This document shows, piece after piece, positions 20,046 through 44,435 of a DNA stretch of 64,000 nt (position 1 is the first letter of the stretch; each line of letters begins with the position of its first letter). This stretch comes from Escherichia coli. Lineage in GTDB: Bacteria; Pseudomonadota; Gammaproteobacteria; Enterobacterales; Enterobacteriaceae. Under the pieces are notes generated by a model. That model saw nothing but the letters and a program-made list of their open reading frames with translations. It searched no databases and had not been told where the DNA came from. The position numbers were made by a program, and so were the translations under genes. The stretch lies in assembly GCF_002854065.1 (NCBI RefSeq), contig NZ_CP024147.1; one strand, 5' to 3'.

Positions 20046-21290
20046 TTACTGATACACCGGCAGCAAATTAAAGCTCGATAAGATATGGACCAGTGCGTTG
20101 CCGACGCCAAACACCAGAATCAGCGCAATCATCGGCTTGCCACCCCAGACGCGGAATTTCGGGCTGCCAAAGCGTTTACGCGATGCACGGGCTAACAGCG
20201 CCGGAACAATTGCCGCCCAGATGGTAGCCGCTAAACCAGCATAACCAATGGCGTACAGGAATCCGTTCGGGAACAACAGCCCCCCCACAACTGGCGGGGC
20301 AAAGGTCAGCAATGCCGTTTTAAAGCGGCCCACAGCCGAGTCGTCGAAACCAAACAGATCTGCCAGATAGTCAAACAAACCCAGCGTTACGCCGAGGAAC
20401 GAACTCGCTACCGCAAAGTTTGAGAACACGACCAGCAGCAGATCCAGACTACGGCTGTTCAGTACGCCGCTTAACGCCTGTACCAGCACATCAATATTAC
20501 CGCCCTTCTCTGCAATACCGATAAACTCCGGACGCGGGATGTTACCCATCGTCGCCAGCAACCAGATGGTATACAGCGCCAGCGCCATCAGCGTACCGTA
20601 CACCAGGCATTTCACGATGGTTTTCGGATCTTTGCCGTAATACTTCATCAGGCTTGGCACGTTACCGTGATAACCAAACGATGCCAGACAGAACGGCAGG
20701 GTCATCAACAGATACGGTGCATAAGACGCATTGCTTTCGGCGACGTTGAACAATGTCGCAGGCTGCACATGTCCCAGCAGGCTACCAAAGGTGAGGAAGA
20801 AGGTAATGACTTTCGCCCCCAGCACAATCGCTGTCATGCGACTGACGGCTTTAGTGCTCAACCACACCACAAACGCTACCAGCAATGCAAAACCAAAACC
20901 CGCCGCCCGTGCCGGGACGTTTAGTGACATCTCTGCGAAGGTGTGATGCAGAATCGAACCACTGGCAGAAATATAGGCATAGGTCAGGATATAGAGCACA
21001 AAGGCAATGGAAATGCCGTTGACCACGTTCCAGCCTTTGCCCAGCAAATCTTTGGTGATGGTGTCAAAACTCGAACCGATTCTGTAATTCAGGTTAGCTT
21101 CCAGAATCATCAAGCCGGAATGCAGCATACAGAACCAGGTAAAGATCAGCGCCGCCATTGACCAGAAAAACCACGCCCCGGACATGACCACTGGCAGAGA
21201 AAACATCCCTGCGCCAATAATGGTGCCGCCGATAATCACCACGCCGCCAAGCAGCGACGGTGACGTTTGGGTGGTGGTTAGTGTTGCCAT
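20046..21290 (-). CDS. mtr: tryptophan-specific permease
   Basis: ORF 414 aa, aromatic amino acid permease family matching Mtr. Confidence 0.93.
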
Positions 21291-21343
21291 GAGGGCTTCT
21301 CTCCAGTGAAAAATAGTGCGACTGCGTTGTTATGTATTGCACT

Positions 21344-21361
21344 GTACCAGTACACGAGTAC
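21344..21361 (-). promoter_or_regulatory. candidate TrpR operator in the mtr promoter
   Basis: On the mtr strand reads GTACTCGTGTACTGGTAC, a near-palindrome of the GTACT-type Trp repressor operator; mtr is a known TrpR/TyrR target. Confidence 0.4.
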
Positions 21362-21370
21362 AAAAGACAG

Positions 21371-21401
21371 AAAAAAAGCCCCGATGGTTCAAATCGGGGC
21401 T
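21371..21401 (-). terminator. intrinsic terminator downstream of deaD
   Basis: On the minus strand: agccccgatttgaaccatcggggct followed by a T7 run. Confidence 0.7.
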
Positions 21402-21443
21402 GTATATATTATTTTACAGACTGTGTTCGCTGTTCAGCGATGA

Positions 21444-23333
21444 TTACGCATCACCACCGAAACGACGACGACCGGTAGAGTCATCACGACGCGGAGCGCG
21501 GCCTTCACGACGTTCGCCGCTAAAACGACGACCATCACCACGACCACCTTCACGGCGTTCACCGCTGAAGTTACGACCACCTTCACGACGCTCGCCACTG
21601 AAACCACGACCACCGCCACGACGCTCTCCGCCAGTATGCGGCTGTGCATCGCCCAGTAATTGCATATTCATCGGCTTGTTCAGAATGCGAGTACGTGTAA
21701 AGTGTTGCAGCACTTCACCCGGCATACCTTTCGGCAGTTCGATGGTGGAGTGAGAAGCAAACAGCTTAATGTTACCGATGTAACGGCTGCTGATGTCGCC
21801 TTCGTTAGCAATCGCACCAACGATATGACGAACTTCAACACCATCATCGCGGCCCACTTCAATACGGTACAACTGCATATCGCCAACATCACGACGTTCA
21901 CGACGCGGACGATCTTCACGGTCGCCACGCGGACCACGGTCGTTACGATCGCGCGGACCACGGTCATCACGGTCACGGAATTCACGTTTCGGACGCATCG
22001 GCGCATCTGGCGGTACGATCAGAGTACGTTCACCCTGTGCCATTTTCAGCAGTGCCGCAGCCAGAGTTTCGAGATCCAGCTCTTCACCTTCTGCAGTCGG
22101 CTGAATTTTGCTCAGCAGTGCGCGGTATTGATCCAGATCGCTGCTTTCCAGCTGCTGCTGTACTTTAGCGGCGAATTTTTCCAGACGGCGTTTGCCCAGC
22201 AGTTCTGCGTTCGGCAGTTCTACTTCCGGAATAGTCAGCTTCATAGTACGTTCAATGTTGCGCAGCAGACGACGCTCGCGGTTCTCAACGAACAACAGCG
22301 CGCGGCCAGCACGACCCGCACGACCGGTACGACCGATACGGTGAACGTAAGACTCAGAATCCATCGGGATATCGTAGTTAACCACCAGGCTGATACGCTC
22401 AACGTCCAGGCCACGGGCTGCAACGTCGGTCGCAATCAGGATGTCCAGACGACCATCTTTCAGGCGTTCCAGTGTCTGCTCACGCAGCGCCTGGTTCATG
22501 TCACCGTTCAGCGCGGCGCTGTTGTAGCCGTTACGCTCAAGAGCTTCAGCCACTTCCAGAGTCGCATTTTTGGTACGAACGAAGATAATCGCCGCATCAA
22601 AATCTTCCGCTTCCAGGAAACGTACCAGTGCTTCGTTTTTACGCATACCCCAGACAGTCCAGTAGCTCTGGCTGATGTCAGGACGGGTAGTCACGCTGGA
22701 CTGAATGCGCACTTCCTGCGGCTCTTTCATAAAGCGGCGGGTAATGCGACGAATCGCTTCCGGCATGGTTGCAGAGAACAGAGCGGTCTGATGACCTTCC
22801 GGGATCTGCGCCATAATAGTTTCAACGTCTTCGATGAAGCCCATGCGCAGCATTTCGTCAGCTTCATCCAGAACCAGACCGCTCAGTTTAGAGAGGTCCA
22901 GAGTGCCACGTTTCAGGTGGTCCAGCAGACGGCCCGGAGTACCGACAACGATCTGCGGCCCCTGACGCAGGGCGCGTAATTGCACGTCATAACGCTGGCC
23001 GCCGTACAGGGCAACCACATTTACGCCGCGCATGTGTTTAGAGAAATCCGTCATTGCTTCAGCAACCTGTACCGCCAGTTCGCGGGTCGGTGCCAGCACC
23101 AGAATCTGTGGTGCTTTCAGCTCAGGATCAAGATTTTGCAGCAGAGGTAAAGAGAATGCTGCAGTTTTTCCGCTCCCCGTCTGGGCCATACCCAGAACGT
23201 CGCGGCCATTCAGCAGATGTGGAATACACTCTGCCTGAATTGGAGATGGTTTTTCGTAACCCAGATCGTTAAGGGCTTCAAGGATAGGAGCCTTCAGGCC
23301 CAGATCTGCAAAAGTGGTTTCGAATTCAGCCAT
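21444..23333 (-). CDS. deaD: ATP-dependent DEAD-box RNA helicase DeaD/CsdA
   Basis: ATG at 23333 ([13 protein letters not shown]...) gives 629 aa; DEAD-box motifs ([12 protein letters not shown]); Arg/Gly-rich repetitive C-terminal tail. Confidence 0.93.
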
Positions 23334-23512: not shown

Positions 23513-24397
23513 CTATTGCTGGTCCGATTCTGCCAGGTCATCTTGGTCCTGGCCCAGGAGCGATAATTCCAACAATGCGTATCGGTGCTCAACAAAGTTA
23601 TGAACGTTGTTGGCAACCGCCAGTTTGAACAGTGCCGTGGCGCTGTCCAAATCCCCCAGACTTAGGTAGTACTTACCTAAATAGAAGTTGGTTTCACTGA
23701 GATGCTCAGCGAGCGAGGTGTTATCCGTTGCGTCCGCCTTGAGCCTTTCCATTAACGTTTGTTCGCTAATGTTGCCCAGGTAGAACTCGACAATGTTCCA
23801 TCCCCACTGTTCCTTATCCGATTTTTCGAAGTGCTGTTTCAACACTTCTTTAGCCTGCTTCTCATCGAGCTTCTGCTCGGCGAGATAAAGCCACAGACTA
23901 CGGAAAGGATCATTGGGATCGTCTTGATAAAACGCCAGCAGATCATCTTGCGCTAACTTGTCACGACCGCCGTAATATAATGCGATCCCGCGATTCAAGT
24001 GCGCGTAGTTGTAAGTTGGATCAAGCTCAAGTACAGAATCAAACGCTTCATAGGCAGCATCAAAATTGCCTGCCTGCGTTAAATATATGCCTAAGTAATT
24101 GAATACTTCAGGCATATCCGGTCGGATTGCCAGCGCTTGCGAAAAATCGTTACGCGCTAATGCCCTCAGACCGAGACTATCATACAACACTCCGCGCTCA
24201 TATAAAAGCTGTGCGCGTTCGTCATCGGTTAAAGCCCGACTGGCAAGGATTTGTTCCATACGTGCCAGAATCACTTCCTGCTGTAAAGTCGGTTGCAATG
24301 GTACCGCGAGGACTTCACTTTTACGCCAGGAAGTATTACTGCATCCTGCAAGCGTAAGTGCTGTCGCAACGAAACACCAGCGCAAAAAAGGCTTCAT
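23513..24397 (-). CDS. nlpI: TPR-repeat lipoprotein NlpI
   Basis: ORF 294 aa with lipobox LTLAGCS and TPR repeats. Confidence 0.93.
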
Positions 24398-26641: not shown

Positions 26642-26843
26642 TGTAATATCCTTTCTCTTTCTTAGACAGTACCTTACGGCACTGGTGTTAATACCCGATC
26701 TTCTGCGCATCCTCGCGACTAATGACAACCCTAACCCAGCCCAATGTGGGTAAAGCCTCTCATTAGCCGCGCGAACCTCTGCAACGGAAGATCATTCATA
26801 GCAACAATACATTAGTTTCCAGTGAATTGCTGCCGTCAGCTTG
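26642..26843 (-). promoter_or_regulatory. pnp 5' leader (autoregulatory, RNase III-processed region in E. coli)
   Basis: ~200-nt untranslated leader between the rpsO terminator and the pnp start; role assigned from established knowledge of the rpsO-pnp operon, not from a structure calculation. Confidence 0.5.
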
Positions 26844-26872
26844 AAAAAAGGGGCCACTCAGGCCCCCTTTTC
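26844..26872 (-). terminator. rpsO intrinsic terminator
   Basis: aaaaaaggggccactcaggcccccttttc: GC-rich hairpin flanked by A/T runs directly after the rpsO stop. Confidence 0.75.
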
Positions 26873-26887
26873 TGAAACTCGCAAGAA

Positions 26888-27253
<366 letters not shown>

Positions 27254-28697: not shown

Positions 28698-28729
28698 TTA
28701 ATTTCAGGTGGAAGGGCTGTTCACGTTGG

Positions 28730-28802
28730 CCTGATAAGACGCGCCAGCGTCACATCAGGCAATCCATGCCGGATGCGACGTAAACGCCTTATCCCGCATG
28801 GA
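28730..28802. repeat. REP/BIME palindromic units
   Basis: gcctgataagacgcgccagcgtcacatcaggc and gccggatgcgacgtaaacgccttatcccgcatgg. Confidence 0.65.
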
Positions 28803-33479: not shown

Positions 33480-33540
33480 GCCCACCCCCAAGACATAAAA
33501 AAAGGGCCTAAAGCCCAGTTATTCTGTAGTCAGATAACAA

Positions 33541-33565
33541 AAAACCCCGATAAATCGGGGCTTTA
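33541..33565 (-). terminator. intrinsic terminator/attenuator between metY and rimP
   Basis: On the minus strand: agccccgatttatcggggtttt, a stem-loop followed by a U-run. Confidence 0.6.
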
Positions 33566-33685
33566 TATAACTGAACCCTATAACCGCAACTGCGGTCTGG
33601 AGCACTTTCCAGAAGGATTTTTTCAAATCCCACTACGAAGGCCGAAGTCTTCACAGTATATTTGAAAAAGAACTCTAAGGGAAAG

Positions 33686-33762
<77 letters not shown>

Positions 33763-37544: not shown

Positions 37545-37631
37545 TGGTACCGAGGACGGGACTTGAACCCGTAAGCCCTATTGGGCACTACCACCTCAAG
37601 GTAGCGTGTCTACCAATTCCACCACCTCGGC
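37545..37631 (-). tRNA. leuU: tRNA-Leu (anticodon GAG)
   Basis: Reverse complement reads GCCGAGGTGGTGGAATTGGTAGACACGCTACCTTGAGGTGGTAGTGCCCAATAGGGCTTACGGGTTCAAGTCCCGTCCTCGGTACCA; long variable arm, class II tRNA. Confidence 0.92.
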
Positions 37632-44188: not shown

Positions 44189-44435
44189 TTGTTATACCTC
44201 TTGAATATTCCTGATGGGGCAAGTCTTCACCCACCCCGGCTGTTCGGCCTGCCCGGCATAACTCCTCACCGGGACCAGAAGCAAAAAAATACCGACCCGG
44301 GTACAAGTCCCAGGTCAGCTACAATTCACATTTTGATAGTCATTTTACCCTGAAGTTCCCGAAGGGTCATCGTTTACTTTATAGGGCGTTGCGCCGTAGT
44401 ATGACGGCTCGATTCCAGGTTGTTAGCGCGAGATT

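Follow-up and report, generated by a model that had tools for sequence, protein, structure and literature searches.

An imperfect tandem repeat in the Arg/Gly-rich C-terminal tail of the cold-shock RNA helicase DeaD of Escherichia coli

The DeaD (CsdA) protein of Escherichia coli ends in four head-to-tail modules, read from the minus-strand translation of positions 21480-21635 of the window, by which we mean the whole 64,000-nucleotide stretch of DNA analysed here. To judge from its sequence, this segment is the C-terminal part of DeaD/CsdA, a dimeric cold-shock DEAD-box RNA helicase, and the modules are old internal duplications kept at the protein level, their synonymous sites having diverged as far as codon usage permits. 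The gene, its domain layout and its disordered tail, which is a Pfam family, are already known, and our result mainly confirms the textbook annotation. Its small added value is a catalogue of natural E. coli tail-length alleles (585, 603, 624, 625, 629 and 633 aa), together with the observation that the net charge of the tail is conserved and its length is not.

The deaD gene and the units of its tail

The features of the gene, its tail and its surroundings are as follows.

21444..23333, minus strand: deaD (csdA) coding sequence from the ORF list, 629 codons and a stop, beginning MAEFETT
aa 30-196 of DeaD: DEAD domain (Pfam PF00270, 177 bits)
aa 232-340 of DeaD: Helicase_C domain (Pfam PF00271, 111.8 bits)
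aa 374-443 of DeaD: DeaD_dimer domain (Pfam PF25399)
21660..21869, minus strand: DbpA-type RNA-binding domain, aa 489-558 (PF03880; PDB 5b88), directly upstream of the tail
21447..21632, minus strand: DeaD_C, the Arg/Gly/Glu-rich, predicted disordered C-terminal tail, aa 568-629 (PF12343)
21603..21635, minus strand: unit U0, 11 residues, aa 567-577, a degenerate first unit
21570..21602, minus strand: unit U1, 11 residues, aa 578-588
21525..21569, minus strand: unit U2, 15 residues, aa 589-603, brought to 45 nt by four extra codons
21480..21524, minus strand: unit U3, 15 residues, aa 604-618, the best kept unit across genera
21447..21479, minus strand: extreme C-terminus, 11 residues, aa 619-629, ending in RRRFGGDA
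21377-21401, minus strand: terminator-like hairpin and T run 3' of the deaD stop (9-pair stem with 6 G-C pairs, TTTTTTT tail)
20046-21290: mtr, downstream neighbour of deaD
23513-24397: 294-aa ORF, upstream neighbour of deaD

We assign the gene to deaD because of its Pfam domains, DeaD_C among them, and because of the RefSeq deaD label under the nucleotide match. A DEAD and Helicase_C core is followed by the dimerisation domain and then by the DbpA-type RNA-binding domain, which places the protein in DeaD/CsdA by its Pfam domains, and the order of core, dimerisation domain, RNA-binding domain and tail is the same as in the DeaD/CsdA-Hera-CshA subfamily of dimeric DEAD-box helicases to which Pfam DeaD_C belongs. 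We find no difference from this known system, the window protein being the reference organism's own DeaD, identical in sequence to PDB chains 5gi4, 5gju and 5b88, all of which are named DeaD. The family PF12343, described in Pfam as "DeaD helicase C-terminal disordered region", aligns over profile positions 1-62 of 62 with DeaD residues 568-629 at 45.7 bits, the cutoff being 23.3. The deaD of E. coli O157:H7 genomes matches, at 100% identity, a 361-nt query made up of the gene's 3' part and the spacer downstream of it, and the RefSeq label under the match is deaD in 5,425 of 5,426 complete E. coli genomes.

The first-pass annotation had placed an imperfect tandem repeat encoding the Arg/Gly-rich C-terminal tail of DeaD at this locus, and both the repeat and the identity of the tail are borne out, the former by Tandem Repeats Finder (TRF) and a repeat search, which make the array slightly longer, and the latter by Pfam and the RefSeq label. 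The peptide given there, (R)FSGERREGG(R), agrees exactly with the minus-strand translation. Its unit size of about 36-39 bp has to be revised, in that the units are 33 nt long, or 45 nt where they contain a four-codon GDGR/R insert, and 36-39 is the mean spacing. In TRF, 21537-21626 comes out as 2.7 copies with a period of 33 (78% matches, score 117) and 21502-21589 as 2.0 copies with a period of 45 (79% matches, score 113), and the repeat search returns a 43-nt family of three copies with 79-86% identity and start spacings of 45 and 33. The tandem-repeat check proposed with that annotation therefore yields unit identities of 78-79% by TRF, above the 70% below which the repeat was to be doubted, and the proposed comparison of orthologues shows that they vary in length.

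The units share 22-26 of 33 nt, with 22-24 of 33 in common between U0 and either U1 or U2, and 26 of 33 between U1 and U2, which differ by four synonymous codon changes and one non-synonymous change; the longest exact direct repeat in the array is 15 nt. When the codons of the tail were shuffled, none of 1000 shuffles reached the best ungapped self-match of 27 at lag 33 (shuffle mean 11.3, sd 2.1, maximum 21), and chance is therefore excluded as the origin of the repeat. With at least two head-to-tail copies at an identity of at least 70% and a self-match above chance, the array is a tandem repeat in the formal sense by both TRF and the codon shuffles. A different picture emerges when the peptide is held constant. 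Identical residues in different units use the same codon at 27 of 46 positions, compared with 25.4 expected from deaD codon usage, and when the same peptide was re-encoded from deaD codon usage the observed DNA self-match was reached in 223 of 1000 trials. Because so many redraws reach the observed value, the DNA repeat can be regarded as a by-product of a conserved peptide repeat, and the codon-identity and redraw tests show no sign of recent duplication, gene conversion or homogenisation between the units.

The tail is predicted to be intrinsically disordered. The solved CsdA chains cover residues 6-210 (5gju), residues 218-445 (5gi4) and the RNA-binding domain up to Q564 (5b88), and the tail lies outside every one of them, 5b88 stopping at Q564. 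AlphaFold2 gave the tail a pLDDT of 39-49 and no secondary structure, compared with 68-75 for the RNA-binding domain, from a shallow input alignment of 31 rows (fragments with the RNA-binding domain and the tail) to which the low confidence is due. The tail carries a net charge of +8 in E. coli.

A second imperfect repeat, rich in Arg and Asp, is found at 21894-22001 on the minus strand (DeaD aa 445-480), in the linker that leads from the dimerisation domain to the RNA-binding domain. At 21989-22012 TRF gives a period of 9, two further repeat families cover the linker, and the stretch differs in length among genera, for example in Klebsiella.

Tail length within E. coli and between genera

We surveyed tail length in the 5,426 complete E. 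coli genomes. DeaD has 629 aa in about 96.6% of them, and about 3.4% deviate. When evenly spaced rows were taken from the matches to a K-12 query, 58 of 60 spanned either 361 nt, the reference length, or 373 nt. The alleles of other lengths are listed here.

633 aa: +12 nt, EGGR duplicated inside U1; 158 genomes by a junction-specific query, including strains 042 and PCN033
625 aa: -12 nt (GFGG); 1 genome
624 aa: -15 nt (ERRGG in U0); 2 genomes, both frog isolates
603 aa (WP_005001325.1): -78 nt, U1 fused in register to U3 with the loss of exactly two units (33 + 45 nt); 21 genomes
585 aa: -132 nt, all units removed between two CGTCGTG microhomologies; 1 genome

All length changes that we identified are in frame, and the variant alleles examined gave no sign of frameshift switching. 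The +12 nt allele looks like a single inherited event, and about 160 genomes that carry it are at least 99% identical over 373 nt. The sequence downstream of the 603-aa allele comes in two haplotypes with 6 differences in about 200 nt, with 16 of the 21 genomes K-12-like and the other 5 consisting of four laboratory derivatives of EC0026B and strain 1403KP; as far as the sequences go, the two haplotypes may reflect either recurrent deletion or recombination after one event. The same 78-nt deletion on the two different haplotypes can be seen in E. coli EC0026B and SCEC020001. In the 585-aa allele all the repeats are gone and the C-terminal motif is retained. The list is not complete, in that an estimated 26-92 genomes rank below the +12 nt group and 25 of these have been identified, and we estimate that few further length variants remain unlisted. 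Recombination or slippage between the imperfect repeats occasionally produces in-frame alleles of this kind (+12, -12, -15, -78 and -132 nt).

Some observations concern sequence changes of other kinds. The O157 and K-12 tails differ by one residue (S579 in place of G) and by synonymous changes; codon 579 (21596-21598, in U1) encodes S in the O157 allele and G in K-12 and most other lineages (S579G). O157 and K-12 are only 96.7% identical across the 361-nt query, which includes the downstream spacer as well as the deaD 3' end. A metagenome contig (L005, positions 1-1040; ENA ERZ1311071 NODE_4165, coverage 2.5) carries the 3' end of an E. coli-like deaD in which a 33-nt deletion leaves a U1/U2 hybrid and a further 15 nt are deleted, and its deaD is truncated at about codon 470 by some 640 nt of unrelated DNA that matches neither an E. 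coli genome nor a Pfam family; the junction could be a chimeric assembly or a rearrangement.

For the comparison between genera, all the sequences that a protein search with the RNA-binding domain and tail brought up were fragments of less than 250 aa, many with frameshifts or truncations, and we used them for qualitative comparison and not for phylogeny. The tail of Klebsiella pneumoniae contains an additional GERREGGR unit as well as a duplicated APRRDD segment, and 29 of 33 nt agree between its first two units (counted from codons), a closer match than in any E. coli pair. Unlabelled fragments have up to five units, or only one to three, and fragments labelled Serratia, Yersinia, Hafnia, Proteus and Pasteurellaceae have tails rich in R/G/E/D or in K, the middle of which cannot be aligned. 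Intact tails are mostly 50-89 residues long, and nearly all have a net charge, computed on the protein fragments P0001-P0120, of +7 to +10 (E. coli +8, Klebsiella +9). Thus the net charge of the tail is conserved across genera while its length and unit number are not. Tails of constant net charge are very different in sequence, and each unit adds only about +1.

The C-terminal RRR..DA motif is widely kept across Enterobacterales. At the extreme C-terminus of the alignment R137 hardly varies, and the terminal DA persists from Escherichia through to the fragments labelled Serratia and Hafnia. The motif (A)PRRR(FG)(G)DA (21447-21479, aa 619-629) is conserved although the middle of the tail cannot be aligned, and it may be a separate short linear motif.

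Fragments P0006, P0007, P0033, P0042, P0068, P0071 and P0080 are frameshifted into the +1 frame of the tail and have a Val-rich end; the +1 frame (21434-21649, minus strand) has no stop codon there. From their sequences, these frameshifted database entries may be either sequencing errors or real mutants.

Possible roles of the tail

We infer that the tail probably serves as a multivalent electrostatic tether for RNA, and that it possibly helps in the formation of DeaD condensates. Situated beside the DbpA-type RNA-binding domain, the tail would bind RNA non-specifically, with Arg and Phe making the contacts and Gly, Ser and Glu spacing them, and the number of units would set its valence. Such a tether would aid the loading of the helicase on long RNAs, speed up strand annealing and contribute to the salt-sensitive condensates of DeaD. 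Selection would then act mainly on overall charge and composition, and for that reason changes in length would be tolerated and the number of units could drift.

Several published observations bear on this proposal. The C-terminal domains in the DEAD-box proteins of E. coli are highly basic, and that of CsdA has been named a likely candidate for its ATP-independent annealing activity (PMC3590231). A secondary RNA-binding site has been proposed in the C-terminal region of CsdA as an explanation of its need for long single-stranded extensions (PMC1616957). According to the summary of Xu et al. 2017 given in PMC11850223, the RNA-binding domain is the main RNA anchor of CsdA, and a construct that lacks the tail keeps ATPase and unwinding activity; the tail is therefore not required for catalysis. 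DeaD foci occur in E. coli cells (PMC7414142, citing Hondele 2019), and the purified protein undergoes phase separation that depends on salt and concentration (PMC12758526). Natural isolates have lost two units (21 genomes) or all of them (1 genome), so any contribution of the tail must be dispensable in at least some conditions.

The closest parallels are the basic tails of Mss116p and CYT-19, which are likewise unstructured, Arg-rich, net-basic extensions that follow the helicase or an ancillary domain, and which have been proposed, in work cited in PMC3590231, to tether the core non-specifically to large RNAs and so to promote annealing. The DeaD tail is not homologous to them in sequence, and it differs in forming a regular tandem array, in including acidic residues (E/D), and in standing behind a separate, folded RNA-binding domain; its own tethering role is putative. 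A second parallel is with the disordered RGG/RG and FG-rich regions of the eukaryotic DEAD-box ATPases Ded1/DDX3, LAF-1, DDX4 and Dhh1 and the disordered C-terminal regions of bacterial RhlE, where low-complexity sequence with Arg, Gly and aromatic residues is likewise joined to a DEAD-box core. These regions have been linked to phase separation, and DeaD itself forms foci and condensates; for RhlE, the disordered regions are described as defining both function and phase separation (PMC11260450). Each unit of DeaD differs from the eukaryotic and RhlE regions in being a mixed-charge block with three Arg and two Glu.

An RGG/RG box has its RGG or RG repeats close together in clusters (tri- or di-RGG, tri- or di-RG). 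The DeaD tail does not look like a canonical RGG box, having one RGG and three RG, with RGGGRG as the single di-RG and most of its Arg in ERR, GGR or RRR contexts.

It is unlikely that the tail is instead neutral low-complexity filler, a compositionally biased relic of old duplications that has no specific role, drifts in length and is selected only for harmlessness. Such a relic would fit the natural alleles that lack two units or all of them, a tail middle that cannot be aligned beyond close genera, and the catalytic activity of the tail-less construct, but it is at odds with a peptide, FSGERREG, that has been kept three times while its synonymous sites were randomised, with a net charge that stays at +7 to +10 in tails of very different sequence and length, and with the conserved terminal RRR..DA motif. 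Nor would one expect of filler that about 96.6% of E. coli genomes have exactly 629 aa, or that Pfam can model the region as a family.

We give a similarly small chance to the alternative that the tail is mainly a module for protein interaction or turnover, a docking site (for the ribosome, RNase E or a client) or a degron, with RRRFGGDA as its short linear motif and RNA tethering not its main role. No other piece of the tail is as widely conserved as the extreme C-terminus, the recruitment of client proteins by DeaD condensates depends on charge (PMC12758526), and PMC9117542 describes C-terminal degrons in CrhR-like DEAD-box helicases. Against this, the literature that we found maps no partner to the tail segment, and the repeats themselves are Arg-rich and net basic, like the RNA-tethering tails of other DEAD-box proteins cited in PMC3590231. 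The 585-aa allele, with its C-terminal motif and no repeats, also speaks against it, and the two parts may have separate roles.

A more ambitious version of the tethering proposal, which we consider quite doubtful, is that the number of modules, through the valence of the tail, sets a threshold for RNA annealing or condensate formation, and that the alleles and the genus-specific gains of units are an adaptive tuning of behaviour in cold shock or dormancy. If this were true, the E. coli alleles with 0, 2, 4 and 4+ modules (585, 603, 629 and 633 aa) would not be tolerated noise, and the two backgrounds of the 603-aa allele would mean that one and the same deletion had been selected repeatedly. 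Recent work connects DeaD condensates with localised translation and antibiotic persistence, and the natural alleles are therefore ready-made variants for studying the role of repeat number in tethering and condensation.

Mutability of the array and its properties as nucleic acid

The earlier statement that these repeats are prone to slippage and copy-number variation holds in one part and fails in another. In-frame length variants do exist, in the 603-aa allele U1 and U3 are fused in register with exactly two units lost, and the number of units differs between genera. Frequent change is what we do not see: about 96.6% of the genomes share one length, a change by whole units is confined to 21 genomes, and the longest exact repeat is 15 nt. 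Because length varies in only about 3% of E. coli genomes, the deaD repeat is an ordinary and not a fast-mutating locus.

The strong form of this idea, namely that the array is a hypermutable, contingency-type coding repeat made for frequent switching of copy number, is already largely refuted and in our estimation very improbable. The in-frame indels do cluster in the array, and the presence of the 78-nt in-register deletion on two downstream haplotypes is compatible with recurrence. Yet near-identical units and long exact repeats, as expected of a hypermutable repeat, are absent from the array, whose units are only about 79% identical and whose identity at the DNA level is no higher than the peptide imposes, and frequent copy-number differences among close strains were not seen in the 5,426 genomes, where most of the roughly 3.4% that deviate (158) share a single allele, with an identity of at least 99% over 373 nt. 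Synthetic queries in the K-12 background from which one 33-nt unit had been deleted, or in which it had been duplicated, gave no single-piece match; their best matches were two-piece alignments to normal 361-nt alleles, and among the top-ranking matches there was no exact one-unit variant. Contingency loci in phase-variable or antigenically variable genes resemble deaD in having in-frame head-to-tail repeats from which unequal pairing can remove units or to which it can add them, and deaD shows one in-register two-unit deletion of this type. In contrast to such loci, the deaD units are imperfect (78-86% identity), their variation is rare and mostly inherited by descent, and deaD is a housekeeping or cold-shock gene in whose examined variants no frameshift switching is found.

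That the repeat is an element at the level of nucleic acid, such as a structured part of the deaD mRNA, a target or source of an sRNA, or a gene overlapping in another frame or on the other strand, can be given hardly any weight. An alternate frame on the coding strand (21434-21649) and one on the plus strand (21316-21753) are indeed both open across the repeat, but open alternate frames are expected in sequence rich in CGT, GGT and GAA. In folding energy the RNA does not differ from shuffles (z = -0.09), no Rfam family matches the repeat, the units vary synonymously when read in the deaD frame, and the DNA similarity of the units is fully accounted for by the peptide and codon usage. We accordingly rejected mRNA structure at the repeat on the folding z of -0.09 relative to shuffles, and overlapping ORFs across it on the ground that their open frames follow from composition.

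The plus-strand frame at 21316-21753 holds a 145-aa ORF, rich in Arg, Pro and Ser and antisense to the deaD tail, which we take to be a composition artefact that lacks support as a gene. Elsewhere in the window, matches above the Rfam gathering thresholds lie at 26700-26871, 27101-27215, 28728-28798, 33497-33597, 33689-33762, 37548-37631 and 44284-44405; they comprise the SraG sRNA, the S15 (rpsO) leader, naRNA4, the rimP leader, two tRNAs and the greA leader.
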